Positions 512-46,977 of a stretch of DNA of 64,000 nucleotides are shown piece by piece. The notes under the pieces were generated by a model, which ran no database searches, had not been told where the DNA came from, and saw nothing but the letters and a program-made list of their open reading frames with translations. The position numbers and the translations under genes were made by a program. Origin of the DNA: Vulcanimicrobiota bacterium. GTDB taxonomy: Bacteria > Vulcanimicrobiota > Xenobia > Xenobiales > JADMJV01. The DNA lies in contig JBFWNU010000003.1 in the NCBI GenBank assembly GCA_050250895.1, forward strand, positions 96,001 through 160,000, given 5' to 3'. Within the stretch, counting starts at the first letter, position 1, and each line of letters begins with the position of its first letter.

Positions 512-1843
512 TCAGTCAGCGATCTCGACCGAGATGCCGCCGATGGTGAGGGCCTCGGGAGTGACCTCGAGTTCGAGCAGCGAGCGCGGCCGACCCGATA
601 GCGCCGCCAGAGCCGCCTCGAAGGCCTGCTGGGGAAGGCTGCCCACCACCCGTTCGAGCCGCATGCGGTAGGCGCACTCGCGCTCGGCTTCGGCCAGGTT
701 CTCGAGGCTGAGCTGGCCGCTCTGAAAGGCATCCTGCAGGCGTTTTTGATGCTGGTCGCGGCTGGCGAAGTCGCCGTGCAACCAGAGGTCGTCGGCCAAC
801 CGCTTGCCACAGTCTTCGAAACTCTCGTGAGCGCCCTTCTCGGCCAGGACCTGGTCGAGGAACTGGCGGTCGTGACGGGCCGGGCCGGGCTCGGCCAGCA
901 CATCGCCCACCACCCCCGGCAGGTCGGCTCCTTCGGGCAGCTGGGCTTGGAGTTGCGAGTAGTGGTCGACGGTCCAGTCAACGAAGCGGTTGACCTGATC
1001 GGGCTTGAGACCAAGCTCGCTCAGCCGGGTTTCAAGACCGGCGAACTGGTCCCAGAGGGGATCGAGCGTTCCGCCCAGGTTCTCGATGGCAGCCATCCGG
1101 CGTATTGCCTGGTCATAGTCAGGCGCCTGGGCTATGCGTTGCCAGACGCCGTTTTCGGCCCGGGCGGCCAGAGGAATCAGGTGAAAGAGTTCATTATTCT
1201 CGATGCCCGGACGCAGCGAAGCCAGCCGGCCGAGGGCGGCCTCGCGCTCTTCGGGCGAGGCTTCTTCTTCCAGGCGGTGGGTGCCCCAGGCGGCCAGGCT
1301 GGGCGAGCCGGTCAAGCCCAACAGAGTGCGAAAGGGGGTCGAATGGCCGTGGAAGTGGTTGACTTCGATCTTGAGCGCATTGCGGGCGTCGACCTGAGGA
1401 CCCCCGCCGGGACCACCGGCGCGACCGGTCACTACCAGCGCTTGCAGCTCGAGGAAGTCGCGATAGCCGCTAACAAGGTCGGGCGGAGTCTGGTTGGGCG
1501 TATAGTCGAGCGGGGCCGACAAGCCGTTGAGCGAAACGCTTTCGTTCGAGGGCGAGCAGCGATGGAGCACGCCATCTACCTCTTGCAGGCTGGCCCAGGC
1601 CATCTGATCGAGCAGCAGCGCATTGGGGCCGGGCGGGAAGGCATCGATGGCCAGCTGCAGCGCGGTGACTCTGGCCTGCCGGTCAAGTCCCGCCAGGGGT
1701 CCTGGACCTTGCTCGACCATGTTCGACAACAGCTCGAGCGAATCTTCGATCACGGGTTGCTCGTGCTGGCCGACCTGGTGGGCCAGCTTGACGAATCGCT
1801 GTCTTTCGACCGGGCTCAAGCCGGCAGTGGCGCGGACATTCAT
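512..1843 (-). CDS. Hypothetical protein with the shared C-terminal motif
   Basis: 443-aa ORF of mostly helical composition; ends LEVTPEALTIGGISVEIAD; promoter-like motif directly upstream. Confidence 0.8.
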   Translation of the reverse strand: MNVRATAGLSPVERQRFVKLAHQVGQHEQPVIEDSLELLSNMVEQGPGPLAGLDRQARVTALQLAIDAFPPGPNALLLDQMAWASLQEVDGVLHRCSPSNESVSLNGLSAPLDYTPNQTPPDLVSGYRDFLELQALVVTGRAGGPGGGPQVDARNALKIEVNHFHGHSTPFRTLLGLTGSPSLAAWGTHRLEEEASPEEREAALGRLASLRPGIENNELFHLIPLAARAENGVWQRIAQAPDYDQAIRRMAAIENLGGTLDPLWDQFAGLETRLSELGLKPDQVNRFVDWTVDHYSQLQAQLPEGADLPGVVGDVLAEPGPARHDRQFLDQVLAEKGAHESFEDCGKRLADDLWLHGDFASRDQHQKRLQDAFQSGQLSLENLAEAERECAYRMRLERVVGSLPQQAFEAALAALSGRPRSLLELEVTPEALTIGGISVEIAD

Positions 1844-1871
1844 GCTGCGATGCTAGGACAACGGGCTGAAA
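1844..1871 (-). promoter_or_regulatory. TTTCAG-N10-TAGCAT-N6-ATG element (putative leaderless promoter)
   Basis: Same sequence and spacing recur upstream of 9 genes in the window. Confidence 0.65.
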
Positions 1872-1910
1872 AAACAGTGATACTTCGGCCCCGCCGCGAA
1901 AGGCCCGGCC

Positions 1911-4572: not shown

Positions 4573-4574
4573 GC

Positions 4575-5285
4575 GTGTTTGACAAGTTGCTTAGCAAGTT
4601 CAAAGCGGCTGTGGCGGGGGTGTCGATACCGGCCCAAGAGCGACGGGCCGTCATCCGCATCGGCGGTAAGGGTTTTACCGTCAATGGCCACGATGGTTCT
4701 AGCGCCTTTCAATGTGACCTGCTGGACGTGAGCGTGGCCGGGGCCCGCATTCGGGCCGAACACAGGCTCAAAGTTGGGGCCCGCGTGCGCCTGAGCAAAG
4801 ACACCCTGGGCGATAGCGTCAACGGGCGGGTCGTCTGGGCCGGCAGTCGGCTGGGCACGCTCAAGGGCCAGTATGGTGTGGTGTTCGAAGAGAGCAAAGA
4901 AGTCATGGCTCGCAGTTGGACGAAGCGCTGCTTGCAGCAGCTGGGTCTGGGCTCGAAGATCGGCATTCAAGAGCGGCGCCGAACGGTGCGCATGCCAACC
5001 AATTTCGCTGCCGCCATGGGCAACTTCCAGGGCGAGATCATGTGCGACGGCAAGCTGGTCCAGCTCTCGGCCGGAGGTTGCGTGTTGGCCATTCCCAGCC
5101 ACGTCGACGTGGGCACCCGCGTCTCTTTGATGGTGCCTGCCCTGGGCACGCTCGAGCCTTTGATCTGTCCGGGTACGGTCAAGCATATCCGCAAGGGCGG
5201 TCAGACGGTGCTGGCAGCTATCGAGTTTCACCAGCCCAAGGTGGACCTGGTGGTTCGCTACCTTAACCAGTTGGCCAATACGTGA
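4575..5285 (+). CDS. Tandem PilZ domain protein
   Basis: Two ERRxxxR motifs, each followed by DVSVAG or QLSAGG. Start moved to GTG 4575, just after the upstream stop. Confidence 0.8.
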   Translation: MFDKLLSKFKAAVAGVSIPAQERRAVIRIGGKGFTVNGHDGSSAFQCDLLDVSVAGARIRAEHRLKVGARVRLSKDTLGDSVNGRVVWAGSRLGTLKGQYGVVFEESKEVMARSWTKRCLQQLGLGSKIGIQERRRTVRMPTNFAAAMGNFQGEIMCDGKLVQLSAGGCVLAIPSHVDVGTRVSLMVPALGTLEPLICPGTVKHIRKGGQTVLAAIEFHQPKVDLVVRYLNQLANT

Positions 5286-7135
5286 CCACCCGCAGCGTCA
5301 GTCTAGCCCTGGCTCGGGCCAAGCTGCTCGAGACCCTCGACAAACACCAGATCGACGTAGTGGCCTCGCTTTGCGAGTTGCGCGAGTTCAGCGAGGGAGA
5401 GACCATCGTTCGCCAGGGCGAGCCCGGCATCGAGCTATTCATCATCCTCTCGGGCCAGGTCACGGTGCTGGTCGAAGACGCCGACCTGGGCTATGAGTAT
5501 CCCATTCTCGAGCTGGTCGAGGGCCAGACCTTCGGTGAACTCTCGCTGCTCACTCGCCATCCTCGGGCGGCCACGGTGCGGGCCGACGTCTCTACCCTGT
5601 GCGCTTGTCTCAACCAGCTTTCATTCGAGAAGCTGCTGGGCTCGCTGCCCCAGGTGGGAGTCACCATCTGTCGCTATCTGGCCGAACGCATCAATGCCCA
5701 GGGCGACCGCACCGGTCTGCGCTTCGTCAAGTTGACTCCGGCTCTCTTTGACCAGCGGCTCTATCGCCTCTTGCCCGAGCGGGTCTGGCAGCGCTTTCAG
5801 GCTGTTCCGCTGCGACTGAGCGGCAGCATCTTGACGGTGGCTGTGACCCGACCCGACGAGGTGGCCCAGATGGCCGCTCTCAAACAGCTGTTGCCGACCT
5901 TCGACGTGCGCTGGGTTGCCTGCGGTTTCGAAGACTACTCGGCCCTGCTCACCGAAACCATCCTGCCCGGCCTGGCTGCGATCGCAACCGACCTGCGTTC
6001 TCTGCCGGTCGAAGAGTTCTGTCTCTCGGGCAACCCCCAGGGGCCGGGCGCCAAGCTGTTGGCCAGTCTCTTCCTGCAGGCGCTCTTCACCGAAGCCGAC
6101 GAATTGCTGCTTGAACCCACCTCCGAAGGGGTGCGCCTGCGGGTGCGCCATCAGGGACGCCTCAAGACCCTGGTCGACCGCGACATGACCCGCGAAAGCT
6201 ATCCGGCCCTGGTAGAACTGCTGCGGGGCCTGACCGGCCTCGGCCCCGAGGATCACCATGGCAGCGGGACCTATGTCCTGCGCGCCAAGCTCCACGAATT
6301 CCAGGTCACTTTCCTGGCCACGCGCTGGGGACCCCGCACGGTGGTTCGCTTTTTCTCGTCGGGGCCCGGCCTGAGCCTGACCAGTCTCTTTCGTTCCAAG
6401 GCCATCAGCAGTCTGCTGGCCGAACAGCTTCAAGGCGGACGCCTGTTCCTACTCTCCGGAGGCCGCGGCTCGGGCAAGTCGAGCACCTTCTACCAGATTC
6501 TCGAAGAGTTCTGCGATCTCGAAGAGCAAAGTGTGATCACCGTCGAGCGCCGCCTGCTGCGAGGGCTTCAGGGGGTCAGTCAGTGCGTGGCCAGCTGGGA
6601 CTCGTCCCGCTCGATGGCTCGTCTAACCCGAGCCGCCCTGGCCCAGAACCCCGACGTGTTGGGCCTCGATGAGGTGACCGATCCCGAGACCGCTCAGCTG
6701 GCGGTGTCGGCCGCCCTCAACGGCGCCTGTGTGCTGGTGGTGATGCGGGAAGCCGATGTCCAGTCGGCCCGTCGACGCTTTCTCGAGCTGGCCGGCAACC
6801 CCGATCTCGAGGCCCAGGTGTTGCGCATGGTGGTGTGCCAGCGGTTGGTGCGCAAGTCTTGCTGCGACTGCCGCACAGAGATCCAGGATGACGACTCTTT
6901 ACGGTCCCATCTGCAACGTGCCGGGCTCTTGACCGACACCGACCTGTTTGACTTGCGCCATTCGCCTGGCTGCGACGCCTGCGCCGGCACCGGCGTGATC
7001 GGGCGAATGGCCGCTTTCGAGTTTTTGGCTTACGGCTCTAACGGCTACCAACACCGGGGGATCAAGGCTTTCGGGCGCGAGTTGCTGAGCGAAGGACTGG
7101 TGGCCCCCCTCGAGGCGCTGCGCGTCTTGAACTAG
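5282..7135 (+). CDS. cNMP-binding domain fused to a degenerate PilB/GspE-type ATPase
   Basis: IVRQGEPG...FGELSLL...PRAATVRA (cNMP domain); GspE N-domain-like segment; Walker A GGRGSGKS; QRLVRKSCCDC...GCDACAGTGVIGR tetracysteine. Confidence 0.85.
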   Translation: MTTRSVSLALARAKLLETLDKHQIDVVASLCELREFSEGETIVRQGEPGIELFIILSGQVTVLVEDADLGYEYPILELVEGQTFGELSLLTRHPRAATVRADVSTLCACLNQLSFEKLLGSLPQVGVTICRYLAERINAQGDRTGLRFVKLTPALFDQRLYRLLPERVWQRFQAVPLRLSGSILTVAVTRPDEVAQMAALKQLLPTFDVRWVACGFEDYSALLTETILPGLAAIATDLRSLPVEEFCLSGNPQGPGAKLLASLFLQALFTEADELLLEPTSEGVRLRVRHQGRLKTLVDRDMTRESYPALVELLRGLTGLGPEDHHGSGTYVLRAKLHEFQVTFLATRWGPRTVVRFFSSGPGLSLTSLFRSKAISSLLAEQLQGGRLFLLSGGRGSGKSSTFYQILEEFCDLEEQSVITVERRLLRGLQGVSQCVASWDSSRSMARLTRAALAQNPDVLGLDEVTDPETAQLAVSAALNGACVLVVMREADVQSARRRFLELAGNPDLEAQVLRMVVCQRLVRKSCCDCRTEIQDDDSLRSHLQRAGLLTDTDLFDLRHSPGCDACAGTGVIGRMAAFEFLAYGSNGYQHRGIKAFGRELLSEGLVAPLEALRVLN

Positions 7136-7145
7136 GAGGTTATGG

Positions 7146-8132: not shown

Positions 8133-8136
8133 GGCC

Positions 8137-13794: not shown

Positions 13795-15054
13795 ATGCAA
13801 ATCGCTCAGGTCAAGACCGGCTTCCCGCCGCTTCGGAGGGCAGCCACCTCCGACCAACCCTCACTCACCATCGAACAGGCTACCGACGTCTTGCTGGGTG
13901 GCGCATACAGAAATGCCGCCCAGCAAGCGCTCTCTCAAATCAGCCGGGCCCAACTGCCCCATGTGCCTAAAGAAGGCGAACGGCTGTGGACCCTGGCCGA
14001 TGGGCGGACCCTCGCCCTGCGCACCGACTTTCGCACCGTCACCGCCACGGATCTCGAGACGGGTAAGGAGCTCTGGGCTCACCATGAGTTTCCTGAAAGC
14101 CTGGGCGGGCTCCGGCCCTTGCGCCCCGACCGCGGTGGCAAGACCCTCGCTTTGACGGACGCTCACCACGGCGTGGCCTTGATCGACGGCGCCACCGGTC
14201 GGGTCAAGAGCCGCATCGAACCGCCCTTGAAAGGCTTCATCACGGCCTCTGAGTTCACCAAAGAGGGGCTGCTGCTGGTGGGCGTGCAACCCAGTCTGCC
14301 CAGTGGCTCAAAGCCGCTGACGCGAATCTTTGCCTACCCGGAAGGCGCCAGCGAGCCGGCCTGGTCGCTCGACCTCGAGCGCAGCGGCATCAACAACGCC
14401 GTCCCCTCTCCCGACGGAAAGAGGCTCTACTTCTCGGCTCACAACGAGTTCAAGATGCACGCTCTGGACCTTGAGAAGGGCGAGATCGTGTGGTCCAAGC
14501 CGCTGGCTCACCACTCGGATCCGGCCGTGGCCCGCGACGGCTCGGTGATTCTCGAGGGCGTGGCCTATGACCCCGAGACGCACCAGCCGCGCTGGAAGGT
14601 CGAAGGCGAGTTTGCTTCCACCCCCATCGAGGATGCTCAGGGTCAGCTCTATTTTGGGGTTGGCGGTCAATTGCAGTGCCGTCGTGAGGATGGCGCTGTG
14701 CTGTGGTCTACCCACGCTTCGGGCAAGAAGTGGAGATTTCCGCCGGTGATCAAGGATGACGCGGTTTTCGCCATGTCGGCCTCTGACCAGGGCACTCAGT
14801 TGCACGTGCTCAATCGCCTGACGGGGGAAGAACTGGCGGTTTCCGAGCCGCTCGGTGATGTGAGCCGGGGCTTCTTCCAGGCCGGCGACCGCGTCTATCT
14901 CGGACTCAAGCAGGGTTATGCCAGCATGGACCTTCCCACCTACACGCTGGCCGCCCTGGCCAGTCAGGCCGCCGAAAAGAACCGGCCGGCCGAGATTGTG
15001 ATCGGCGAAGACAAGCTGTCGGTGGGCGGCTTCGAACTCGACATCCTCGACTAG
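13795..15054 (+). CDS. PQQ-like beta-propeller protein with the shared C-terminal motif
   Basis: Repeated ALDxxxGxxxW blades; no signal peptide; ends IVIGEDKLSVGGFELDILD. Confidence 0.85.
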   Translation: MQIAQVKTGFPPLRRAATSDQPSLTIEQATDVLLGGAYRNAAQQALSQISRAQLPHVPKEGERLWTLADGRTLALRTDFRTVTATDLETGKELWAHHEFPESLGGLRPLRPDRGGKTLALTDAHHGVALIDGATGRVKSRIEPPLKGFITASEFTKEGLLLVGVQPSLPSGSKPLTRIFAYPEGASEPAWSLDLERSGINNAVPSPDGKRLYFSAHNEFKMHALDLEKGEIVWSKPLAHHSDPAVARDGSVILEGVAYDPETHQPRWKVEGEFASTPIEDAQGQLYFGVGGQLQCRREDGAVLWSTHASGKKWRFPPVIKDDAVFAMSASDQGTQLHVLNRLTGEELAVSEPLGDVSRGFFQAGDRVYLGLKQGYASMDLPTYTLAALASQAAEKNRPAEIVIGEDKLSVGGFELDILD

Positions 15055-19176: not shown

Positions 19177-19815
19177 ATGCGCATAGCCGGCTCACCCCCA
19201 ATTCGTCTGGCCCGCACGAGGACCGAGCCGACTGCTCGGGACGTGCTGCTGCCGCCCTGCCCGGAGAAGCCCGAGGACCTGCCGCTGCTCACGCGCCACG
19301 GCGTGGGCCTCACCGTGGCCGGGACGATGGCCACCTCGATCGGCACCGCGATCGGCGCCTCCTTTGCCGATGGTGGACTGGCTGGCCGGGCGATGGGGCT
19401 CACCTTTGGAGCCATTGCGGGAATGTCGGCCGGGTTCTTCGCGGCCGACCTGACGATGGGTCTGGCCTCGAAGGTCAGCGGGCATCAATTTTCGCCCACG
19501 GCCATCAAGATCGCCAGGGGAGTGGGCATGGCCGGGTGTCTGGCCGCGGGCTGGGCCCTGGCGGGAAAGAGGCTGCCCGACGAGTTCGTGCTCGGGCCAA
19601 TGGTGCCGGGAGTGTTCCTCGGCATGTTCACCGGAATCGGGCTGGCTTTCCGCTACGTCGACCCCATCATCGAGCGACACCGCCAGGCGGTGAGGCAGTA
19701 CGAAGAGGACCTGACCAGCTACAATCGGGCGGTGGCAGAATTGGAGACGGGTGTCGCCCTCAAAGAAACCGACGACTATGTCGAGGTGGGAGACATCACG
19801 CTCGATAAAGCCTAG
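19177..19815 (+). CDS. Membrane protein (about 4 Gly-rich hydrophobic segments) with the shared C-terminal motif
   Basis: MRIAGSPP start; coiled segment; ends LKETDDYVEVGDITLDKA. Confidence 0.8.
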   Translation: MRIAGSPPIRLARTRTEPTARDVLLPPCPEKPEDLPLLTRHGVGLTVAGTMATSIGTAIGASFADGGLAGRAMGLTFGAIAGMSAGFFAADLTMGLASKVSGHQFSPTAIKIARGVGMAGCLAAGWALAGKRLPDEFVLGPMVPGVFLGMFTGIGLAFRYVDPIIERHRQAVRQYEEDLTSYNRAVAELETGVALKETDDYVEVGDITLDKA

Positions 19816-24023: not shown

Positions 24024-24051
24024 CAGTCTAACCTAGACCAGGCGACTGAAA
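24024..24051 (-). promoter_or_regulatory. TTTCAG-N10-TAGGTT-N6-GTG element
   Basis: Recurrent motif with identical spacing. Confidence 0.65.
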
Positions 24052-24062
24052 ATGTCATGAAC

Positions 24063-24086
24063 GAAAAAGGCTCCCCTGAGGGAGCC
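24063..24086 (-). terminator. Intrinsic terminator of 24112..24564
   Basis: ggctccc/gggagcc stem followed by a T run on the minus strand. Confidence 0.7.
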
Positions 24087-27419: not shown

Positions 27420-27460
27420 TTCGGCTTGGCGTGAACGGGGCGTAGCTCTTTTCGAAGCGT

Positions 27461-27489
27461 TTTCAGGGCCTGGTGTTAGGCTCGGCTTG
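27461..27489 (+). promoter_or_regulatory. TTTCAG-N10-TAGGCT-N7-ATG element
   Basis: Recurrent motif. Confidence 0.65.
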
Positions 27490-28752: not shown

Positions 28753-31700
28753 TCCTGCTGGCGAGTGACGCTGAAGTCACCCACCGTGACCTGCTCGGCG
28801 TCCATGTCTAAAGACAGATCTTTCTGGCTGTTCATGGCCTCGGCCAGGGCGATGACTTCGGTTACGGCTTTGAGTTCGGCGGCCAGCGAACTGCCGTTGG
28901 CAACCTTCTGGGCGATGGTGCTGTAGAGCGAGGATTGCTCGGGGGTGCTGTCGGCCAGCCAGCTCAAGATAGGCTTGGCAGCGCGATTCTGCTTGTCGGT
29001 CTCGGCCAGCTTGAGGCCTAGCTTGAGATACTCGCTCGGTCGGCTGGGCGGGGCCTCTTCGGCTAGGACGGTGGTGGCTAAACCGAGTTCTTTGGCTGTG
29101 GCCAGACGCGCCGCAAGCTCGCCGAGCCACCTCTTCTCGGGGCTGCCCGACAGATTGCGGGCAGCCGCGGCCATGACGATCCCCTGGGACTCGGTGTAGT
29201 TGTAAGCGTCGTTCCGGCTGCGGATGCGTTGCATCACATGCTGATAATACTCCTGGACCGACTGGTCGGGATTAGCGGCCGCTTCACGTAAGGCCAGCAG
29301 CCGGACCGTTTCCTGTTGGAGTTGCTGGTTAAGCGTGTCGACCACCGGAGCCAGGGGATTCGAGCCGACGGCCATCAGCCGTTGCAGCACACCCGTCCCC
29401 AGACTCTCGGCGAGCTTGGTGCCCAATTGCTCGGGGTCGTGGCCCTGCTCGAGCAGGGTCCTGGCCAGCAGACGCCGCTCGGAATCGTTCGGTTTGCCCT
29501 GGAGCAACTGGTCGAGCAGCGAGGCCGAGTCGGCCTGGTGTCCTTTCACGGCGGCCACCAACAAGTTTGCCTGGGCGTTGCGATAGTCGTAGGCATTGCT
29601 GCGCTGGTTGATGCTCGCATCGGCGGCCAGGGCCAGCGTCACGACCGACGCGCTCGGGTCCTTGGCGCTCGCCCTGAGGAATTCGCTCTTGACCACGCCC
29701 TCGAGCTGGGCGGCCAGGCTCAGCGCTGGTGTTAGCGTCGGCTGGTTGGTGGCCAGATCTTGTAGCAAAGCAGTCAGGGCCGCGTCGGACGCGCTCCAGT
29801 TGGCCATCTGCCTGGTAAACTCGGCGAGCTTGCCGGGGGTGGAAAGATCCGGCGATTCGAGCAGGTAGTCCAGCATCCGTCCATTGGCGTAAGTTTCGTG
29901 AAGCTTGTGGGCGCGGTCCACCGTGTCGGGATGGCTCGGTCTGAGGGTGTCCAGGGCCGCCAGTTGCACCTTAGCCAACTCACCCCGATAGTTGTAGGCG
30001 TCGTTGCGTTGGGCCACTTGCCGACTGACGGCCAGGGCTAGCTGGGTGGGGCTGTCATCAGGATGGGCGAAGGCCTCTTGGTAAACGATTCGCTGGATGA
30101 GTTGATTCTCGCAGGCCTGATCGAAGCGCTGGGCGGTGGCGAGCAACTTGCCGCCCTGAGCGGCAACCGCCTCGGCTAACCGGCGAGTGGATTCGAGGGA
30201 AAGACGCTGACTGGCAAAGGCCCCGAAATCGTTGAGCTGGTCCAGGTTGCCAAGCTCGGGGTGCTCGAGTAGCCGGGCGTAGATGTCGGGACGCTTGTTC
30301 TCGCTCAGGCTCTGGGCCATCTGGTTGGCCTGACCGTAGCGCTCGGCCGGAGCCGCCGCCAGCGCTTGTTTGAGTAGCGTCGCCACGGCCTGGCTGTGTT
30401 CATAGCTGTTGTTGAGCTGGTTGACGGCTCGATGGGTGGCCAGGGCCATTTCTACCCCATTCGCTGTGGGCTTTAAGAGGGTCTGCTTGCGCAACTCGCG
30501 CAGCACCACCGGGTCGGCCGGCACCACGAGTTCGCGGTAACTTGCCATGGTGGCCCGGGTTGCCTGATCGCCCTCGAGCAGATCGATCGCGCCTTCCAGG
30601 CAGCGGTCATTGGCGTAGCTATTGGCGATGAAGGTCGCCAGCCGTTGGCGTCCTTCGGGAGTGTCGGCGATGGGAGCTTCGAGCAGATGGCGCAGCCAGC
30701 GAATCTCGTTGGTGGACTCCGGGTTGCCTAAGAGGTCGTAGAGTTTGAGGTTGTAAGCATAGTCGGGATGGCTACTCATCTCGGCCATGCCTTTTCGCAG
30801 CACCTTCGTGAGGTCCCCGTAGTGGTTGTAGCTCGAGGACCAGCTCGAGACTTCGTCGGCGGCGCCCACCGCCAGTTGGGCGGGGTTGGCGTCCGGATGG
30901 GCGTAAGCCTGGCGATAGACGGCCGCTCCGGGCGTGCCTGCTCCAACGGCCAGCTTGGCGGCCGCTTCCATGGTGGGGCGATACTCGGGCGTCTCGGCCA
31001 CCAGAGCAGCCAGTCGCTTGTGTAAGTCTAGCTCGTTGCGCCTGCCCAGCGAACTCCTGGCGACATCCAGCCAGGTGGTCTGGGGCTCGCGCAAGAGCTG
31101 ACTATAGAAGCTGACTTTGCCGCTATCGTCGAGGACAGAGTCGAGCTGGTTCGCCCGGTCGGCCAGACCTTCCATCTTGACGCCGTTGGCCAGTTGGCGG
31201 GCCCGAGAGGCAAAGTGATTGTAGGCCGAGTTGCCCTGGCTGACCTCGGCCTCGACCGCCAGGGCCAGGCGGCCGGGCGGGGCGTCGGGATTGGCCAGAG
31301 CTTTGCGAGCCAGCGCCAGCTTGATCTGGTCGTCACAACCCTCGCTCAACCCCTTCACTCGATCGGCTAGCGAGTCGAACCCCGCCATCTTCGAGAGGGC
31401 CTGTAGGAAGCTCTCGGCGCTGGCCTGACCTAACGAGTTCGCCAGGGTGGCCACCACCCGGCGCTGGTCCTGGGGGGTCTCGAGACGCTGGTCTTGCAGC
31501 ACCCGACGGCAGACGCTGAGGCGTTCGCTGTCGCCGCCTTCGGGCTTGAGCCAGGTCACGATTTCGGCCCCGGGGCCCGCGCCTTCCAGGCAGGCGACCG
31601 CGAGCAGTTTCGCCCGGTCAGCGTTCCACTGATAGGAGTATTGCCACTGGCCGATTTCTTGCTCGGTCCTGACAGCCCACTCGCGCATGCCCGCCTCGGG

Positions 31701-32942
31701 GTCTTTGCGCACGACCCGGGCCAGCACCTCACGAATGCGGGGATTCTTGCTGGCCTCGAAAAGCTTGTGGACCGAACCCTGGCCGCGAGCGAGCATGGCC
31801 GAGCGGGTCATCTCGACCGCGTCTTCTCCTTTGACCCGGTCGGCCAGGGCCAGCGACTGGTCGGGCTCGGCGAGTTCGGGTTGGGCCAACAGAGCGGCCG
31901 CCATCGAGACCTTGCCCGCCGCCCCCAGCGAAGCGTTTTGATAGAGCTTGCAGGCGTTGGCATAGGCCGGCTCGGCGGCCAGAGCGGCCATGGCCCGGTC
32001 GGCGACCTGCCCGTATTCTTCGGGCTTTTTAGCCTCTTCCAGCACCCTGGCCACCAGCGCCGCTCGAGCGGCAGCGGTGACCTCGGTGCGATAAGGCAAG
32101 GCGTTGGCCAGCACGGCGACGCGGGCCGCCTGGGGCACACCCTCGCTCAATCCGGCCGCAAAGCCGCACATCGAGGCATATTTCGGGTGAGCGGCCAGCA
32201 CCGGCACCAGGTCTGACGATGGGTTGCCTGCCAGAGTGCCCTGGTGGAGCTGAAAAGCCCTCTGGGCCAGGCTCAGCTCTTCGGTGGCGGCGCGAAAAGT
32301 CTCGAACTCTTGCAACTGTTGGCGATCGAAGCTGCCGTCTGGGCTCTCGTACCAGGCTTCGTCGGCCTTGCCGACCCAGGCCGGACGACCGGCCGCATTG
32401 GCCTGGACATAGGCAGTAGTGGGCTTTTGCTGACTGCCGAACAGGCGATAGCCGTCACTTTCCAGGCTGGCCAGGGGATGGGAGCCGGTATAGAAGCGGT
32501 GGACCTTTTCCAGTTCGTGACCATCAGCCACCACCAGCGGCAGGCCTGCTCGCATCAGGGTTAGTTCCTTCAGGCCGTGGGCCGGATCGGTAAGGCTATT
32601 GTAGGCGCCATAGAGCCCCACCTCGGCGCTGGTTCCGTCGAGCTTCGCGTGAAAGCGAAAGCCTTGCCCGGCCAGCTCTTCGAGCTTGCTAGCCAGCCCC
32701 TTCTGGGTCGAGTTGACGGTCAGGTTTTGGACTTCGCCCAGGTCTTCACTGGTGCGCAGCGGCAGGCGCACCTGGCTGTCGGGTGGCTGCACCAGCAGTT
32801 TGTCGGTGTTGGGGTGGCTGCCGAGATACTGCTCGACCTGAGCGGGAGCGACCTCCTTATAGGCGTCCATCAGCCAGGGCACGTAAAATGCCTTCTTCTG
32901 GAAAAACCGGACCTGGCCCGGGTCCTGTGGGTTGATCCTCAC
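28749..32942 (-). CDS. 1397-aa alpha-helical repeat protein, paralog 2, with the shared C-terminal motif
   Basis: Collinear with 19812..24023; ends LDMDAEQVTVGDFSVTRQQD. Confidence 0.9.
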   Translation of the reverse strand: MRINPQDPGQVRFFQKKAFYVPWLMDAYKEVAPAQVEQYLGSHPNTDKLLVQPPDSQVRLPLRTSEDLGEVQNLTVNSTQKGLASKLEELAGQGFRFHAKLDGTSAEVGLYGAYNSLTDPAHGLKELTLMRAGLPLVVADGHELEKVHRFYTGSHPLASLESDGYRLFGSQQKPTTAYVQANAAGRPAWVGKADEAWYESPDGSFDRQQLQEFETFRAATEELSLAQRAFQLHQGTLAGNPSSDLVPVLAAHPKYASMCGFAAGLSEGVPQAARVAVLANALPYRTEVTAAARAALVARVLEEAKKPEEYGQVADRAMAALAAEPAYANACKLYQNASLGAAGKVSMAAALLAQPELAEPDQSLALADRVKGEDAVEMTRSAMLARGQGSVHKLFEASKNPRIREVLARVVRKDPEAGMREWAVRTEQEIGQWQYSYQWNADRAKLLAVACLEGAGPGAEIVTWLKPEGGDSERLSVCRRVLQDQRLETPQDQRRVVATLANSLGQASAESFLQALSKMAGFDSLADRVKGLSEGCDDQIKLALARKALANPDAPPGRLALAVEAEVSQGNSAYNHFASRARQLANGVKMEGLADRANQLDSVLDDSGKVSFYSQLLREPQTTWLDVARSSLGRRNELDLHKRLAALVAETPEYRPTMEAAAKLAVGAGTPGAAVYRQAYAHPDANPAQLAVGAADEVSSWSSSYNHYGDLTKVLRKGMAEMSSHPDYAYNLKLYDLLGNPESTNEIRWLRHLLEAPIADTPEGRQRLATFIANSYANDRCLEGAIDLLEGDQATRATMASYRELVVPADPVVLRELRKQTLLKPTANGVEMALATHRAVNQLNNSYEHSQAVATLLKQALAAAPAERYGQANQMAQSLSENKRPDIYARLLEHPELGNLDQLNDFGAFASQRLSLESTRRLAEAVAAQGGKLLATAQRFDQACENQLIQRIVYQEAFAHPDDSPTQLALAVSRQVAQRNDAYNYRGELAKVQLAALDTLRPSHPDTVDRAHKLHETYANGRMLDYLLESPDLSTPGKLAEFTRQMANWSASDAALTALLQDLATNQPTLTPALSLAAQLEGVVKSEFLRASAKDPSASVVTLALAADASINQRSNAYDYRNAQANLLVAAVKGHQADSASLLDQLLQGKPNDSERRLLARTLLEQGHDPEQLGTKLAESLGTGVLQRLMAVGSNPLAPVVDTLNQQLQQETVRLLALREAAANPDQSVQEYYQHVMQRIRSRNDAYNYTESQGIVMAAAARNLSGSPEKRWLGELAARLATAKELGLATTVLAEEAPPSRPSEYLKLGLKLAETDKQNRAAKPILSWLADSTPEQSSLYSTIAQKVANGSSLAAELKAVTEVIALAEAMNSQKDLSLDMDAEQVTVGDFSVTRQQD

Positions 32943-32970
32943 CTGCCCATTGTGGTCGGTGGGGCTGAAA
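32943..32970 (-). promoter_or_regulatory. TTTCAG-N10-CACAAT-N6-GTG element
   Basis: Recurrent motif. Confidence 0.6.
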
Positions 32971-33077
32971 CTTTCCTGAAGGGCGTGGCGGCCGGGCTGG
33001 TCGGCGCGGGCCCGATGGATAAACCGCAGAGTTTAGGAGGCGCGGAGAGAGGAGGTCGGTCTATCGCGGCATGGTGA

Positions 33078-37898: not shown

Positions 37899-38090
37899 AT
37901 GAACTCTGCTCTTTGTGAACCAACCGTATATCGTCTTGAGGAGTTTCGGGTGATTTGCGCCTGGTGCCACTCCATCATCCAGTCTCCGACCTGTTGTCGT
38001 GGCGAGGTGCCCGAGTCTCACGGCGTGTGCCGCCGCTGTGCCATCAACATGGGCCTGCCGGCCCATTTGCTCGACCGTCAGTCCGCCTGA
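37899..38090 (+). CDS. Small zinc-binding protein
   Basis: ICAWC...SHGVCRRC; TAGGGT 7 bp before ATG. Confidence 0.6.
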   Translation: MNSALCEPTVYRLEEFRVICAWCHSIIQSPTCCRGEVPESHGVCRRCAINMGLPAHLLDRQSA

Positions 38091-38653
38091 AGGGGGACCT
38101 CGATCGCGTTGATCGAAAGCCAATCGGATTCCAACTGAAAGTCCACCTCACGCGGGGACGCCACGAGCTCTTCTACCTTGCCGCGATTCTCCTGGTGATA
38201 GCGCTCCAGGTTGTCGGCGAAGTGGCCGGGATCTTGCATGAACATCGTCACGCAGAAGTGGCGATTGTCGTAGGGACCCAGATGCTCCGAAATCTCTTTC
38301 ATGGTGGCCAGGGCGTTCCTGGGGGCGTCGATGTACTTGCGCTCGCGTTCGAACGGAATCAGGCGCTTGTAGTCTTCGACCAGGTCGGCCATCGGCTCGC
38401 CCGGGCGGCGCAACTCGGCCAGCGCCGGAAAGCTGCGGTTGACGGCGCTGGTGGGACAGGCAGTGTGGCGCTTTTCCTCTTCGAAGAGATCGACCATCAC
38501 CTTGCTCATCTCGACCACATCGTCGCCGGGCTGCATGGACGATTCGACCACTCCCAGATGGGTCTGTTCGACCCCTACGCACTCCCAGAATTCGCCCCGG
38601 CGGGCGATGGTCGAGAGCACTTCGATGGCCGGATTCTTAGGAGAGACTCGCAT
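38078..38653 (-). CDS. Hypothetical protein with a variant of the shared C-terminal motif
   Basis: MRVS start; ends FQLESDWLSINAIEVPLQAD; upstream motif present. Confidence 0.75.
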   Translation of the reverse strand: MRVSPKNPAIEVLSTIARRGEFWECVGVEQTHLGVVESSMQPGDDVVEMSKVMVDLFEEEKRHTACPTSAVNRSFPALAELRRPGEPMADLVEDYKRLIPFERERKYIDAPRNALATMKEISEHLGPYDNRHFCVTMFMQDPGHFADNLERYHQENRGKVEELVASPREVDFQLESDWLSINAIEVPLQAD

Positions 38654-38681
38654 GGGCCTAGCCTAGCCGCTCGCCCTCAAA
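38654..38681 (-). promoter_or_regulatory. TTTGAG-N10-TAGGCT-N6-ATG element
   Basis: Variant of the recurrent motif. Confidence 0.6.
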
Positions 38682-38693
38682 GAAAGTCGAAAT

Positions 38694-39962
38694 TCAGCCC
38701 AAGCCGAGCCGCTGCTTGATGTGTTGGCGCAGGGCCGCGCTCGAGGCTTCGCCCGGGTCGGTCAGGTTCTTGAACTGACCTAAGATGGCCAGACCCAGCG
38801 GAATGGACACCGGGGTGCCCAGACCAGCGATCAGGTAAAATCCACCCGCCTCGGGATCACCGGCGTGGGCAAAGCAATAGACCGAAATGGCCGTGGCTAG
38901 AGCAATGGCCGCGGCGATGGGTAAACAGCTGATATGCGAATTGGGCTTGACCCGTTCGCGGGTGGCATCCAACAGGTTGACCGAGGCCAGCACCATCTTC
39001 TTGAGTTCGGGCAGGCAGTCGAACAACTCTTGCGTTTTGGCCCGTAGTTCGGGCCCGTCGAGCACCTGCATGCCGGTCAGATCAGTCTTGAGTTCATCGA
39101 CCGAAAGCACCGCTTGCAGCCCAGGAATAGGAGCCTCGACGGTCTTGGTGTCGACCCAGACTCCGGCCTGGACCAGATGGATTTCGGCGGTATCCTCGAG
39201 CGCTGCGCGCATGGTCAACCAGCGATCGCTGTTAGCTCCGTCGAGGCGACGGGTGAGCGGGGCAAGGGTGTCGGCCGGGGGCAGATCCAGGCGGTGCTCG
39301 GCTGCGGCCGGGCGCCATTCGGCCAGCACATAGTCACCTTCGAGATGCTGCAGATGGCGGCGCGGCTTATAAGGGGGAAAGCCTCCGCCCGGTAGCACCG
39401 CGCCATCGACCAGGATGGGCAGCGGCAGGTAGCGGCAGCGGGTCCGAAGCGCTTCCATCTCGGCTCCCCGATCGCGTTTGGGCAAATCCAGGCGAATCTC
39501 CATATAGGGGCCTTTATGGATGGTGGCCAGGGGCTCGAGCTTCATCTCGTTGGCATCCACCGTCAGGGCCTTGGATTGGCCCTCGCTATCGGTCAAAAAG
39601 AGATAGCCCTTACCGCCCTGGGCCAGGGCCGCGTTGAGGGCGATCAAGAGACAACCCGCCGGCGTGAAGGCGTCGCTGCCCAGCGGATTGCACAACCCTT
39701 CGGCTACCTGCTGAAGGTCGGAGTTGGACCAGCCCGGCAGCTGGACGACCAGTTCGCTACGCAGACTAAGTTGAACCTCGCGGCAGTCGGCCAGCACGGC
39801 CGCCTGCATCAGCTTGAGCAGATAGTCGGTGGGACGAGCCAGTTGAAACTTGGCCAACTTCTCGCGCGCTTTGCGAAAGTCGACGGTGAAGCGTCCGCTC
39901 GACTCGAGCTGGGCTCCGCCTTCGCTGGTCTGTTCGGCGATGTATTTCTGCAGTTCGCTCAT
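38694..39962 (-). CDS. Protein with degenerate GHKL/Hsp90-like N-domain and C-terminal TM pair
   Basis: Start reassigned to ATG 39962 (ATGA overlap); SSGRFTVDFRKAREKLAKFQLARPTDYLLKL matches the N-terminus of 49056..50861. Confidence 0.75.
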   Translation of the reverse strand: MSELQKYIAEQTSEGGAQLESSGRFTVDFRKAREKLAKFQLARPTDYLLKLMQAAVLADCREVQLSLRSELVVQLPGWSNSDLQQVAEGLCNPLGSDAFTPAGCLLIALNAALAQGGKGYLFLTDSEGQSKALTVDANEMKLEPLATIHKGPYMEIRLDLPKRDRGAEMEALRTRCRYLPLPILVDGAVLPGGGFPPYKPRRHLQHLEGDYVLAEWRPAAAEHRLDLPPADTLAPLTRRLDGANSDRWLTMRAALEDTAEIHLVQAGVWVDTKTVEAPIPGLQAVLSVDELKTDLTGMQVLDGPELRAKTQELFDCLPELKKMVLASVNLLDATRERVKPNSHISCLPIAAAIALATAISVYCFAHAGDPEAGGFYLIAGLGTPVSIPLGLAILGQFKNLTDPGEASSAALRQHIKQRLGLG

Positions 39963-43476: not shown

Positions 43477-43509
43477 TGGCCGTCGCTGATTCCAGCTACA
43501 ATGGGAGCG

Positions 43510-43986
43510 ATGGTCCAGGCAATGTGTGCGAAGACGGGGAGGGTCTGGTTGGGCGTAGGGTTGACTTGTACGGTTGGCCTTTTGGGGATCATCCTGACGG
43601 GTTGGGACTTGACCTCCACCCGATGGCAACGGGCAGACGCCGAGCAACGGCTCTTTCAGGGACTCGACGGTGTGAGTCTGGGGATGGATAGAGGCTCGCT
43701 CCTGAAGCGACTGCAGGCCGACCCCTGGTTGGCCCAGAGAGTCAGCCAACGTTCGCTCTGGGTGGAACAGCCCGATGACCAACTCGTTCTCGAAGCGATC
43801 CCGAACTCCAGTGTGGCCGCGGTTGCCATCCTGGATTTCGAGCACGGGCGATTGCGCAGGATACGCTATCGGACCTGGGACGATGGTGTCAGACCTGCAC
43901 CTGGGGCCCCGCCGGACCGCGAAGCAGATTTTTTTCAGGGCGGGCGACTAGACTCGAGCTATGCTCGTCGGTCCACGCCTTTTTAG
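43510..43986 (+). CDS. Hypothetical membrane-anchored protein
   Basis: TACAAT 7 bp before ATG 43510; N-terminal hydrophobic segment. Confidence 0.5.
   Translation: MVQAMCAKTGRVWLGVGLTCTVGLLGIILTGWDLTSTRWQRADAEQRLFQGLDGVSLGMDRGSLLKRLQADPWLAQRVSQRSLWVEQPDDQLVLEAIPNSSVAAVAILDFEHGRLRRIRYRTWDDGVRPAPGAPPDREADFFQGGRLDSSYARRSTPF
43933..43960 (+). promoter_or_regulatory. TTTCAG-N10-TAGACT-N6-ATG element
   Basis: Recurrent motif directly before the P450 start. Confidence 0.65.
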
Positions 43987-45610
43987 TTACTCTCACCGTC
44001 CGCCCGTTCTCACGGCGGGTTTCCCAAGCTCCATTCCCGATAGCGTTCAGCTCGGGACAGACCTGCCCAACGCGACCCTGTTGGCCCAGGAACTCGAGCA
44101 GGCCAAGGAGAGTTGTCCCAACGGAATCGCTGCGTCACCCGAGAAACGTGGGTTGCAGAAGGCCGACACGGCTCTGGCCCAGCAGGCCGGGCTGGTTGCG
44201 TCCGGGCCGGCGGCGAACGCGGTGGCTGCTCAGCAAAGCGAGTTTCGGCGTGGCGTGTGCCCCTATCTGGCCACCATGGGCAAGGTCGAGCAGGGAGTGC
44301 TCGAGCCGGAGGCGGTCGGCAAGCTCGAGTTCGCCTCGAGCCTGATTCGCAATCACGGCAATGCAGCTGTTCTCTTCGAGGAGATGCACACCGCCCACGG
44401 CAGCACGTTCCAGGTCCAGGGAGCCAGCGGTCCAATCCTTTTCGACACTCGTCCCGAGACGGTCGAGCAATTGCTGGTGCGCACCGAGGATCCTCGCAAT
44501 CCACCGCTGTTTCAGAAATCGGCCGTGGCTTCCCACGGTATGGCCGGCCTGTTCGGGACCGACAATGTGTTTCTCAACGACGGTCCCGGCTGGAAGCTCA
44601 GTCGTCAGGCGGTGATGCCTTACTTTTCTTCCAAGCATGTCCATACCGACGAGCGAGTAGCGGCTATCGACGCCATTGTAGGGCGCCATCTCGATCGTCT
44701 GGGCGAGCGGGTGGGCCCCGGCGCCGTGGTCGACCTGCAGGAGGTGATGGAGAAGACCACCCTCGACGTCGCTCTCAACCACATTTTCAGCGCCGATCTT
44801 ACACCGGCGCGCCTGGACGAGATTCACGCCGCCTTCGCGGTGGCCATGCAGGCCTCGGCGAAAGAGACGATGCTACCGGGCTCGTCCAGCCGGGCCGATG
44901 AGAGCGCTCGGGCCCGGGTCAAGCAAGCTTACTCCACCCTTGAGTCTTTCGCCGACGAGCTGATCGCCGGGCGGCGTAGCCAGGGAGTGGGCCAGCGAGA
45001 CGCCCTCGACGGCTTGCTGTCGATGCGGCATCCCGACACCGGGCTGGGGCCCTCCGACAGCCAGCTACGCCACGAGATCTTGACCCTGATGCTGGCTGGT
45101 CACGAGACCACCGCCAGTCTATTGGGTTGGACGCTGTGCGAACTGGCTCGCAATCCGGAGGGGCAGGCCCAGGCGCGCGCCGAGATCGAGCGCGAGATCG
45201 GTTCGGCCGAACCCGGATTTCGCAGCCTGAAGGGTCTGCAAGGTGTGCACGACGCCTGGTTCCAGAGTGCGGTGGACCACACTCCCAGCTTCTTGATCGC
45301 CCGCCAGGCGGTGAACGACACCCTGGTCGGGCCCGAGGGCGCCCAGGTCGAAGTGAAAAAGGGCACCACCATTCTGGCCAGCATTCGGCACGCCAATCAG
45401 ACTCGCTCGGCCAGCGGCAGCACCAAGGTTTTCTCCTTTGGTGGAGGGCCGCGCATGTGCATCGGTCAAATGCTGGCCCGGCTCGAGGCCGAGCTTGTCA
45501 TGACGCGCTTTCTGCAGCGGTTTGAAGTGAGCGCTCAAGGGCCTCTCCAGACCGCCTCGGGGCTATCGGCTCATCCCCACGACGCCCGGGTCGAAGTCAA
45601 GCCGCGCTAG
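43961..45610 (+). CDS. Cytochrome P450 with long N-terminal extension
   Basis: AGHETT I-helix and FGGGPRMCIG heme Cys; ExxR and PERF motifs not recognisable. Confidence 0.9.
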   Translation: MLVGPRLFSYSHRPPVLTAGFPSSIPDSVQLGTDLPNATLLAQELEQAKESCPNGIAASPEKRGLQKADTALAQQAGLVASGPAANAVAAQQSEFRRGVCPYLATMGKVEQGVLEPEAVGKLEFASSLIRNHGNAAVLFEEMHTAHGSTFQVQGASGPILFDTRPETVEQLLVRTEDPRNPPLFQKSAVASHGMAGLFGTDNVFLNDGPGWKLSRQAVMPYFSSKHVHTDERVAAIDAIVGRHLDRLGERVGPGAVVDLQEVMEKTTLDVALNHIFSADLTPARLDEIHAAFAVAMQASAKETMLPGSSSRADESARARVKQAYSTLESFADELIAGRRSQGVGQRDALDGLLSMRHPDTGLGPSDSQLRHEILTLMLAGHETTASLLGWTLCELARNPEGQAQARAEIEREIGSAEPGFRSLKGLQGVHDAWFQSAVDHTPSFLIARQAVNDTLVGPEGAQVEVKKGTTILASIRHANQTRSASGSTKVFSFGGGPRMCIGQMLARLEAELVMTRFLQRFEVSAQGPLQTASGLSAHPHDARVEVKPR

Positions 45611-46977
45611 CGGCCTTTGCCGATCGAGAAGCCCCCAATGGTGATGGCCTCTTCGTCCTCCTCGAGCCTGGTGGTGGGCTCGCTGGCCGTGGCTAGATCT
45701 CGCATTTCTTCCACGGCTTCTTGGTGCTGGCGGCGAGCCTCGCGCACGGCCCCGTAGTTATCGTGGAAGCCTCCGGCCGCCCCGAGCACGGCGCCAGCCG
45801 CGACCAACGGCAAGGTGGCCTGGGGCCCGAGCCAGGCGCTCAGGCCGCCTCCGACGGCTGCCCCCACCAGGCTGGCCCCTCCCACCTCGGGCACTCCGCC
45901 TAACAGCAGGCCCGAGACACCCGATAGGATGGCCGCCGAGAAGAAGCCTGGCCAGCCATAGGCGTGGGTAAGGGCGGCCGTGCCACCCAGCACTCCGGCC
46001 GTAACCAATCCGCCCACCAGCGTGCGCCGGATGAGGTTCTCGGTGGGGCCCGAACGGGCTCGTCCGCTTTCGCCTTCGAGGCCGGCGGCCAGGCCTACCA
46101 GCCCCGAGCCGAGGGTCAGCGAGGCGGCCAATCCTGGGCCTCCATAGGCTCCACAAGCGGCCAGGGCGCCGGTGATGAGAGCGCCGGGGATGATGGCTTC
46201 GCCGGCCTTGGTAAAGGCGGCTAGCCCGGCCGCGCCGGACAGGGCCGACACGATGGCGCCGGGGACCTGATGGCCGGCCCCCAGGGCGGCGCTGCCGCCA
46301 AAAAAAGCCGCCATGGTGGAGGCCCCCACCAGGGCCGCCCCGGCCTGGGCTTGCCGGCCGTCGAGGTTCTTGGCGTAGTTCTCGTCTTGAAAGGTGCCCA
46401 CGATTCCCAGGCCCGCCCCCACGGCGGCAATGGGTATCAGCAATCCGGGTGAGGCCATGGCGCAGCCACCCAGGCCGGCCGACAAGACGGTGCCGACCGT
46501 GGCCAGTTCGGGGGCTTCGGCCACGGCTGCCGTGCTGAGAAAAGTGGTCAGCCCTCCGCTCACCAGGCCGGGAAAGCCGTAGTTGACGGCCATGGCGCCC
46601 GTGCCCGCGGCCAGTCCCGCTCCCAGCAAACCGTGGCTGGCCAGCTTGAAAGCGGCCTCGGCAACCGGGCCAGGTGGAGAGGACTTGAATTCGTCACGCA
46701 GGCTCAGATAGGCTCCCACCGCTCCGCCCGCTGCCGCCAGCGGAAGGGCCATTTGGGGGCCGCCGTAGGCTCCGCAAGCGGCCTGAATGCCTCCCACCGC
46801 CATGGCCGGTAGCGCCGCTTCGCCGGCCTGGGTCCAGGCGGCCAGACCGATGCCTGTGCCCACGCTGCCGGCCGCTCCAAGCCACGGATTCACCCCGCCC
46901 AGGGCCACGTTGGCCCCGGCCAGGGTGGCCCCGCCCAGGCCAGCGCCGACGACTCTGGTGAAGGAGGAGACTTTCAC
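45607..46977 (-). CDS. Gly/Ala-rich polytopic membrane protein with the shared C-terminal motif
   Basis: Four internal repeats of about 95 aa (AGEAA/APEL/AGEAI/VPEV...GP); ends LEEDEEAITIGGFSIGKGR. Confidence 0.85.
   Translation of the reverse strand: MKVSSFTRVVGAGLGGATLAGANVALGGVNPWLGAAGSVGTGIGLAAWTQAGEAALPAMAVGGIQAACGAYGGPQMALPLAAAGGAVGAYLSLRDEFKSSPPGPVAEAAFKLASHGLLGAGLAAGTGAMAVNYGFPGLVSGGLTTFLSTAAVAEAPELATVGTVLSAGLGGCAMASPGLLIPIAAVGAGLGIVGTFQDENYAKNLDGRQAQAGAALVGASTMAAFFGGSAALGAGHQVPGAIVSALSGAAGLAAFTKAGEAIIPGALITGALAACGAYGGPGLAASLTLGSGLVGLAAGLEGESGRARSGPTENLIRRTLVGGLVTAGVLGGTAALTHAYGWPGFFSAAILSGVSGLLLGGVPEVGGASLVGAAVGGGLSAWLGPQATLPLVAAGAVLGAAGGFHDNYGAVREARRQHQEAVEEMRDLATASEPTTRLEEDEEAITIGGFSIGKGR

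Follow-up and report, generated by a model that had tools for sequence, protein, structure and literature searches.

Eight genes in a 64,000-nt stretch of the Vulcanimicrobiota bacterium genome (contig JBFWNU010000003.1, positions 96,001 to 160,000; hereafter the window) code for otherwise diverse proteins that end in the same short tail, and a genome-wide search raised the number of proteins carrying this C-terminal tag to 81, i.e. about 1% of the proteome. The tag is confined to C-termini, behaves as a module attached to unrelated proteins, none of which has a Sec-type signal, and co-varies among related genomes with a promoter and with certain cargo families. The reading that we put forward, and to which we give about an even chance, is that the tail acts as a short modular C-terminal sorting or docking address on an export-directed, co-regulated and effector-like set of proteins.

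The tail and the proteins that carry it

The original prediction, made from the window alone, listed eight open reading frames (ORFs) whose C-termini align without gaps. All eight lie at the positions it gave and end as it quoted them (tail scores are in bits against the tail profile):

512-1843 (-): tagged protein of 443 aa without known family, starting MNVRATAG in translation; tail encoded at 512-571, 16.8 bits, the core ending 4 residues before the stop
13795-15054 (+): tagged PQQ_2/BamB-like beta-propeller, 419 aa, with the N-leader MQIAQVKTGFPPLRRAA; tail at 14995-15054, 10.6 bits
19177-19815 (+): tagged small protein, 212 aa, with Gly/Ala-rich hydrophobic segments and the N-leader MRIAGSPPIRLARTR; tail at 19759-19815, 13.6 bits
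19812-24023 (-): tagged giant, 1403 aa; tail at 19812-19874, 19.0 bits
27490-28752 (+): tagged PQQ_2 beta-propeller, 420 aa from the leader start MRIDSQIG (27487-28752 (+) for the ORF as first listed); tail at 28693-28752, 9.3 bits
28749-32942 (-): tagged giant, 1397 aa, paralogue of 19812-24023; tail at 28749-28811, 17.7 bits
38078-38653 (-): tagged small acidic protein, 191 aa; tail at 38078-38140, 13.6 bits
45607-46977 (-): tagged Gly/Ala-rich protein, 456 aa; tail at 45607-45666, 21.2 bits

The genome (9.50 Mb, 63% G+C, 17 contigs, 99.6% complete) was searched as 85,839 six-frame stop-to-stop ORFs and as a crude set of 8241 genes. A profile built from the eight window tails alone gave 21 matches of at least 10 bits, 20 of which end no more than 10 residues from the stop (about 8% would be expected to); outside the training set, 12 of 13 matches were C-terminal. 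After three rounds of rebuilding, all 53 matches of at least 15 bits and 30 of the 34 matches between 10 and 15 bits were C-terminal, i.e. 83 of 87 by the same distance limit. The decoys gave one match of at least 10 bits (reversed database) and two matches (last 40 residues shuffled), none of them at a C-end. The concentration at C-termini anticipated for a whole-genome scan is thus borne out. At a threshold of 4 bits the profile recovers exactly the eight ORFs in the window, where no housekeeping protein is tagged, as had been claimed. The set used below consists of the 80 proteins of the gene set with at least 10 bits plus the window propeller at 9.3 bits; weaker variants suggest a genome total of about 90-95 tagged proteins.

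The tail-coding DNA is not a repeat, since pairwise nucleotide identity over the 69-nt core averages 44%, with only 2 of 3403 pairs at 75% or more; conservation therefore acts at the protein level. The bodies of the proteins are unrelated, in agreement with the original prediction: among the 81 blastp distinguishes 54 groups, of which 11 are families and 43 consist of a single protein.

In the refined consensus of 83 tails, a linker rich in Pro, Ser, Gly and Ala is followed by Leu (57 of 83), Glu and a variable position, then by three acidic positions (44, 66 and 73 of 83). The end of the core reads x; V/L/I (83); x; V/I (82); Gly (72, with Asn in 10); Asp (59, with Gly in 11); F/I/Q/V; x; V/L/I (83). 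Four or five residues remain after the core in 68 of the 83 tails (range 1-9). The Asn variant is represented in the window by the tail of 38078-38653. The proposal that the tail forms a three-strand beta tag fared less clearly. An AlphaFold2 model of the window propeller 27490-28752, based on an alignment of nine paralogues, has a confident propeller and a disordered N-leader at residues 1-48 (pLDDT, the predicted local distance difference test, of about 50 or below); after the body come a helix, a disordered linker and then the tail, drawn as two short strands away from the body. Short strands after a helix and linker agree with the proposal, but their pLDDT is only about 50, so that a three-strand tag may be called plausible.

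With respect to curated models the tail is novel: no Pfam or NCBIfam model covers it, the NCBIfam scan having taken seven of the eight window tagged proteins (28749-32942 was left out). We found no report of the motif in the literature, in searches not aimed at the motif sequence itself. A library-wide profile search (1.84 billion representatives) returned eight matches at E<=0.001. Of these, six lie in long repeat proteins, at 3-9 internal stretches in each, and were taken as chance; a Pfam scan of five of them gave BRCA2 repeats, BspA-type leucine-rich repeats, Big_12, or nothing above the cut-off. The remaining two matches are to fragments (55 and 71 aa) with the motif at their end. Because a profile of 35 positions is weak at library scale, this search does not establish absence elsewhere. 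A word-based homologue search with one tagged family gave three clusters only, and a search of the ESM Atlas with the tail gave no usable match.

As to their nature, the Pfam matches of the 81 proteins (25 of 37 matched families listed) comprise 11 PQQ/BamB-like propellers, three PD40 proteins, three InhA-like MAM proteases, one WD40 protein and one S9/S33 hydrolase; about 60 proteins are without family. Judged from their sequences, the recognisable domains are mostly of extracytoplasmic type (the propellers, PD40 and InhA-like MAM groups). The largest protein has 1683 aa, and several are Gly/Ala-rich and membrane-active in appearance, some with glycine-zipper segments. Tagged proteins carry more negative charge per residue than the others (-0.033 versus -0.017) and their Cys content is below that of the rest of the proteome. 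None of the 81 has a hydrophobic N-terminal stretch, against 2076 of 8057 other genes (25%), by a crude hydropathy test rather than SignalP (12 residues with a Kyte-Doolittle mean of at least 2.0 within the first 45). A large repertoire of effector-like proteins devoid of signal peptides had been predicted, and this description fits the 81.

On the Pfam scan, the two PQQ_2/BamB-like propellers were the only window tagged proteins to be recognised. Protein 19177-19815 has one tagged paralogue elsewhere in the genome according to the blastp grouping. The orthologue of 512-1843 in the sister species of the same genus is 37% identical overall and has kept the tail, ending ..ELVVEDDLITIGG... The N-terminal ~260 aa of both giants (23214-24023 (-) and 32133-32942 (-)) are one common domain, also present in at least six tagged proteins of this genome and in proteins of a genus of a sister family (g4 below; 32-41% identity). 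Its AlphaFold2 model has a pLDDT of 91.7 and a predicted TM-score (pTM) of 0.83; Foldseek found no match to the model in the PDB at E<=0.001 (best E 0.26, TM about 0.12), and the domain may be a new fold. The remaining genes of the window are ordinary and unrelated: M20 peptidases, a GntR-aminotransferase, a GGDEF regulator, HtpG, a P-type ATPase, Lgt, TPR proteins, a P450, and a PilZ gene with a T2SSE-type ATPase.

A shared promoter and N-terminal leader

The same promoter signature precedes six of the eight window tagged genes and an untagged P450 gene, and it is found at about 130 further sites in the genome beyond the window. In the upstream alignment it consists of two T-rich TTCAG elements about 11 nt apart, at -39 to -23, and of a -10 box, CTAGnCT, lying 6-7 nt from the start codon, in which TANNNT covers -12 to -7; the start codon stands where transcription should begin. 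Because the promoter abuts the start codon, the mRNAs are probably leaderless. The window sites, with the scores of their genes on a two-block matrix anchored on start codons, are:

1844-1890 (-): promoter of 512-1843; T-rich TTCAG, then CTAGCAT (TANNNT) ending 6 nt before ATG; score 26.5
24024-24070 (-): promoter of the giant 19812-24023; TTTTCAG ... CTAGGTT ... GTG; score 23.1
27443-27489 (+): promoter of the propeller 27490-28752, from the upstream alignment and matrix; score 23.4
32943-32989: promoter of the giant 28749-32942; score 14.1
38654-38700 (-): promoter of 38078-38653, from the upstream alignment and matrix; score 25.4
43914-43960: promoter of the P450 gene 43961-45610; score 30.8
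46978-47024 (-): promoter of 45607-46977, from the upstream alignment and matrix; score 16.6

The gene for the other propeller, 13795-15054, has a Shine-Dalgarno-like AGGAGG in place of the shared promoter. Genome-wide, 138 genes score at least 18 bits on the matrix, and 35 of them are tagged and four weakly tagged; these 39 of 138 compare with 37 of the 8017 genes scoring below 8, the specificity of the matrix resting on regular-expression controls and on this tag enrichment. About half of the tagged genes lie behind the shared promoter. The two TTCAG repeats, one helical turn apart upstream of a -10 box, have a layout that we take to resemble promoters of the pho-box type, served by winged-helix response regulators; by analogy, this would suggest that such a regulator acts here.

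Genes behind this promoter tend to encode a common type of N-terminus. The start Met-[KRQ]-[IV]-x-[PSG] was found in 34 of the 81 tagged genes and in 208 of 8160 others. After Met-x-Ile/Val-x-Pro comes a stretch rich in Pro, Arg, Ala and Ser, often followed by Asp-x-Val-x-Leu-Ser. In 93 of the 138 promoter-bearing genes the third residue is Ile or Val, and in 101 of them the first 12 residues contain neither Asp nor Glu (2799 of 8057 other genes). The P450 of the window belongs to the wider regulon, outside its tagged subset:

43961-45610 (+): cytochrome P450 without C-terminal tag, with the 40-residue N-leader MLVGPRLFSYSHRPPVLTAGFPSSIPDSVQLG

A scan of 61 untagged regulon proteins found degradative enzymes (M48, S41 and C11 peptidases, DPPIV, amylases, glycerophosphodiesterases, endonuclease I) together with normally cytoplasmic families (pyruvate kinase, DeoC, peptide deformylase, flavin reductase, P450, ADP-dependent kinase). 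So mixed a content suggests that the leader marks a wider class of proteins, of which the C-terminal tag designates a subset.

Three members of the regulon and three proteins with an internal tag deserve separate mention (locations are on contigs C1, C2 and C4 of the window genome, G000). A 239-aa protein (L169, G000:C1:650733-651452), probably the DeoC match, has a 20-residue leader before the apparent DeoC start. Two proteins of 279 and 318 aa (L127, G000:C4:731065-731904, and L128, G000:C1:327652-328608) have an N-terminal YidD domain, and the former ends in a Gly-rich segment; YidD is a membrane-protein insertion efficiency factor. Three proteins carry the tag internally, followed by 35-305 further residues having no paralogue, and two of the three have a common N-terminus and the regulon promoter:

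G000:C2:15369-17363: internal-tag protein L092
G000:C1:2562485-2565370: internal-tag protein L093
G000:C4:149200-151521: internal-tag protein L095

The internal profile matches gave no clue to a parent domain for the tag; one of them, in the N-domain of a PilT-like ATPase, was taken as chance.

Distribution among relatives and the search for a reader

The original prediction was confined to the window; across the relatives that we scanned, the motif is lineage-restricted and patchy. At E<=1 the tail profile gave 93 matches in the window genome, 65 in the other genome of its genus, and 28-37 in each of five genomes of g4, a genus of a sister family. The 14 genomes (3.3-8.4 Mb) of g2 and g3, two genera of its own family, gave 0-2 matches each, and small genomes of the f3 family 0-1. 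In a sample of 81 genomes of the phylum, matches at E<=1e-4 were found only in the two genomes of the genus, in one g8 genome and in one class-level relative. A few more large genomes gave elevated counts at first look, which may point to additional variants of the tag.

The promoter follows the same distribution. The promoter pattern occurs 31 times in the window genome (no control run); with the control count in brackets, its congener has 9 (1), two genomes of g4 have 11 (2) and 14 (3), and the single genomes taken from g2 and g3 have 2 (2) and 2 (1) respectively, so that the pattern exceeds background only in tag-bearing genera. Likewise, two tagged cargo families, those of the N-domain of the giants and of the InhA-like giants, have relatives in g4, but searches of g2 and g3 genomes gave none. 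The tag, the promoter and the cargo families co-vary, being found in this genus and in g4 and in neither g2 nor g3. The g4 ORFs behind the promoter have leaders, and their tails keep an h-x-V-G-G-h-x-h core (h, hydrophobic) but have a basic end (..VVVGGVRVPRRS, ..VLVGGVALPRRKA).

The original prediction supposed that a chaperone or secretion machine recognises the tag. Neighbourhood and marker searches did not find one, and co-occurrence profiling with secretion genes gave no tested marker that co-varies with the tag. The tagged genes are solitary and scattered, and no neighbour family is enriched within two or four genes of them; a dedicated ATP-binding cassette (ABC) transporter or membrane fusion protein was not enriched within these distances either, no genome-wide profile of the two having been made.

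A pilus-type cassette recurs beside some tagged genes without being enriched there (P 0.07-0.5). It consists of a Ser/Thr kinase, a GAF-fused PilC/GspF platform, a protein of about 550 aa without family and two pilin-like proteins. In the genome, family profiles find the platform 75 times, the pilins 80 and 87 times and the 550-aa protein 48 times; one example of the cassette is at L077:1058-6535 (G000:C1:2412025-2417502). The window holds only the PilZ gene and T2SSE ATPase at 4575-7135 from the pilus/type II secretion set. Expansion of T2SSF is equal in tag-free genera, which led us to reject it as reader: PF00482 domain matches number at least 60-97 in complete large f1 and f2 genomes, fewer in three that are 65-78% complete, and about 10 in small f3 genomes. 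The expansion brings to mind the Kil pilus of Myxococcus, whose minor-pilin tips are interchangeable (PMC12075869).

Other machines were searched for by their markers. The genome gave no match to the type VI secretion system (T6SS) protein TssC/VipB (PF05943), to the phage-type sheath (PF04984), to the VirB4 ATPase (PF03135; coupling-protein and Dot/Icm models were not tested) or, complete as it is to 99.6%, to the encapsulin shell Linocin_M18 (PF04454; family 2 shells were not tested). Its only two secretins adjoin canonical PilC/GspF genes (pilus or type II secretion). Two full-length export-gate genes are present:

G000:C1:585691-587613: FlhA/SctV export gate
G000:C1:1458965-1460971: FlhA/SctV export gate

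Gene order and gene sizes, the only criteria used, suggest that both are flagellar. Eight further proteins carry the cytoplasmic C-domain of FlhA alone, which in type III export forms the substrate-docking ring. The FlhA family was rejected as reader, since it is just as frequent in tag-free genera: every relative searched has such stand-alone copies, with 2-15 family matches per genome. So was C39, the peptidase domain of the ABC transporters that serve double-glycine leaders: the window genome has one 233-aa ORF and its congener none, and the full-length C39-bearing ORFs (716-781 aa) lie in tag-free genera.

A candidate address tag and the alternatives

The arrangement that we propose is the following. 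The tag, about 15 core residues with an acidic cluster, V/L/I-x-V/I-Gly-Asp and hydrophobic-x-hydrophobic, set after a flexible linker and 4-5 residues from the C-terminus, would be read by one shared partner through beta-strand pairing. The partner would direct tagged proteins outside the cytoplasm, either for secretion or for retention on the surface or on a structure, and the N-terminal leader of the wider regulon would supply a first, non-Sec export step. That the tail could be an address peptide is suggested by its flexible linker, its short amphipathic strand-turn-strand, the invariant hydrophobic positions, the fixed distance from the end and the switch of charge between lineages. A role in export or sorting seems the best fit because the folds are of extracytoplasmic type, Sec signals are lacking, the promoter is dedicated and the cargo diverges rapidly.

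A wider proposal, which we hold tentatively and at less than an even chance, is that tag and leader are two address signals of an undescribed, Sec-independent trafficking route in large-genome Eremiobacterota, with a reader that would be part of no known secretion system. It would carry some 150-200 co-regulated proteins made from leaderless mRNAs (degradative enzymes, copies of metabolic enzymes, membrane-active small proteins, giants) out of the cytoplasm, and from these the tag would pick some 80-95 for a second step or for a distinct destination, perhaps prey or a surface structure.

Several observations weigh against the tail being an export address. No reader emerged from the searches; the best neighbour family counts 3 of 9 members beside tagged genes (P=0.003, uncorrected for many tests), and the secretion markers tested are either absent or present regardless of the tag (T2SSF, FlhA family, C39). 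The normally cytoplasmic families of the untagged regulon fit plain secretion poorly, which leaves room for targeting to an internal compartment or to other cells, or for false positives of the promoter matrix. The link between leader and tag is only partial, since the promoter matrix gives scores below 8 to 34 tagged genes and the leader start is seen in no more than 34 of the 81. Finally, the structure of the tail is predicted at low confidence, and export itself is deduced from sequence.

By analogy, the nearest logic would be the two-signal arrangement of the type IX secretion system (T9SS) or of sortase-type systems, with the N-leader as first signal. As with the type A and B C-terminal domains (CTDs) of T9SS in Bacteroidota, one C-terminal element is found on many unrelated cargoes, a separate N-terminal signal is present and the repertoire is large. 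T9SS CTDs are folded, span about 80-100 residues, have Pfam and TIGRFAM models and are borne by cargo with Sec signals. The element described here differs from them in having about 20 residues, no model match and no Sec-type signal on any of its 81 carriers, and the CTD models (Por_Secre_tail/TIGR04183 for type A, and type B) were found neither in the window Pfam and NCBIfam scans nor among the 25 families listed of 37. Sortase, exosortase and rhombosortase signals (LPXTG, PEP-CTERM, GlyGly-CTERM) are built of a motif, a helix and a basic tail, an organisation not seen here: the 1-9 residues after the core leave no room for a transmembrane helix. NCBIfam sorting-signal models had no match in the seven window tagged proteins scanned.

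The likeness to type III regulons (HrpL and the hrp-box of Pseudomonas syringae) lies in a dedicated promoter that sets a large effector group, in an N-terminal compositional signal and in the two FlhA-type gates. In P. syringae the N-terminal rule is an aliphatic residue at position 3-4, no early acidic residues and a Ser/Pro-rich composition, and promoter-bearing genes here show the Ile/Val at position 3 and the scarcity of early acidic residues reported above. To our knowledge, however, type III effectors have no common C-terminal tag, and export-gate genes also occur in tag-free relatives; the two FlhA loci of this genome look flagellar. Dot/Icm E-block signals share with the tail an acidic cluster about 10-17 residues from the C-terminus, subsequent hydrophobic positions and a large diverse effector set, but no VirB4-family ATPase was found in this genome and the present motif is far more regular.

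The main rival is that the tail is a docking or assembly handle, which, either within the cell or once exported, would plug diverse proteins into one scaffold (such as a surface layer, filament tip, vesicle or large particle) through strand addition to an incomplete sheet. Such a handle would agree with a short, hairpin-like peptide that follows a flexible linker and stands a constant number of residues from the C-terminal end, and also with the lean of tagged proteins to binding and structural folds when untagged regulon members are more often enzymes. The acidic end of the tag here and its basic end in g4 are what co-evolution with a charged binding site could produce, and the ~75-87 copies of the pilus-type cassette could offer tips. 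Those cassettes, however, are not enriched beside tagged genes and are equally expanded in tag-free genera, and no scaffold gene was identified. Encapsulin cargo is another known parallel; native and consensus targeting peptides are given as PLTVGSLRRGG and DGSLGIGSLKG in PMC7925596. Like these, the tail is a short C-terminal peptide after a flexible linker, with hydrophobic-x-V/I-Gly-small-hydrophobic, and the g4 variant ..VLVGGVALPRRKA is similar by eye; unlike them, it is encoded by scattered genes rather than in an operon with a shell, and no PF04454 shell was found in this genome. No encapsulin known to us comes near to having 81 cargoes with lengths reaching 1683 aa. We consider the docking handle rather improbable, while keeping it ahead of the other alternatives.

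We regard as unlikely that the tail is an uncleaved signal of the type I kind, read by an ABC transporter with a membrane fusion protein and an outer-membrane channel encoded elsewhere. As with HlyA, serralysin-type proteases and the giant RTX adhesins, the element is C-terminal and its carriers are acidic, often very large (here up to 1683 aa) and without N-terminal Sec signal; the charge and Cys values given above go in the same direction. But known type I signals are poorly conserved and are not known to be tied to a common promoter or leader, whereas this motif is sharply conserved, stands at a fixed distance from the end and comes with both. In addition, no transporter genes recur beside the tagged ones, no RTX-type repeat family is among the 25 Pfam families listed of 37 matched, and the C39 peptidase family does not track the tag.

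A still smaller chance attaches to control within the cytoplasm, in which the tail would serve as degron, autoinhibitory peptide or chaperone handle and have no part in localisation. Although a fixed distance from the free C-terminus is typical of recognition by proteases and adaptors, and usually cytoplasmic enzymes sit in the same regulon, one degron on 81 unrelated proteins under one promoter would be unusual; the tag is moreover found on extracytoplasmic-type domains that have no other export signal, and on no housekeeping protein of the window. Least of all do we believe in a foldon-like motif through which the proteins would oligomerise by their C-termini, for although the single model built shows a hairpin-like peptide following a helix, the tag sits on monomer-type folds such as beta-propellers and the sequences give no general sign of coiled coils.

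To return to the address tag, the tail falls outside T9SS CTDs, sortase-type signals, encapsulin cargo peptides, T6SS and contractile injection systems, VirB4-type type IV secretion and GG-leader systems when the defining features of each are looked for. We therefore see in it a new C-terminal tag of a general kind already known, that of shared tails for sorting or docking; the machinery to which it belongs may be new as well.

It was through shared terminal tags that large systems for secretion and sorting, such as those of T9SS CTDs, PEP-CTERM and LPXTG, were first recognised. The present one marks about 1% of the proteins of a bacterium from soil or water that has been little studied, in a phylum with almost no experimental biology. 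Its clean pattern of presence and absence among close relatives makes the reader findable by comparative genomics, and its function can be tested with fusions. The group has been proposed to be predatory (PMC9259500). If the tag does belong to a new route, it would define the effector repertoire of this group and supply a portable targeting peptide.

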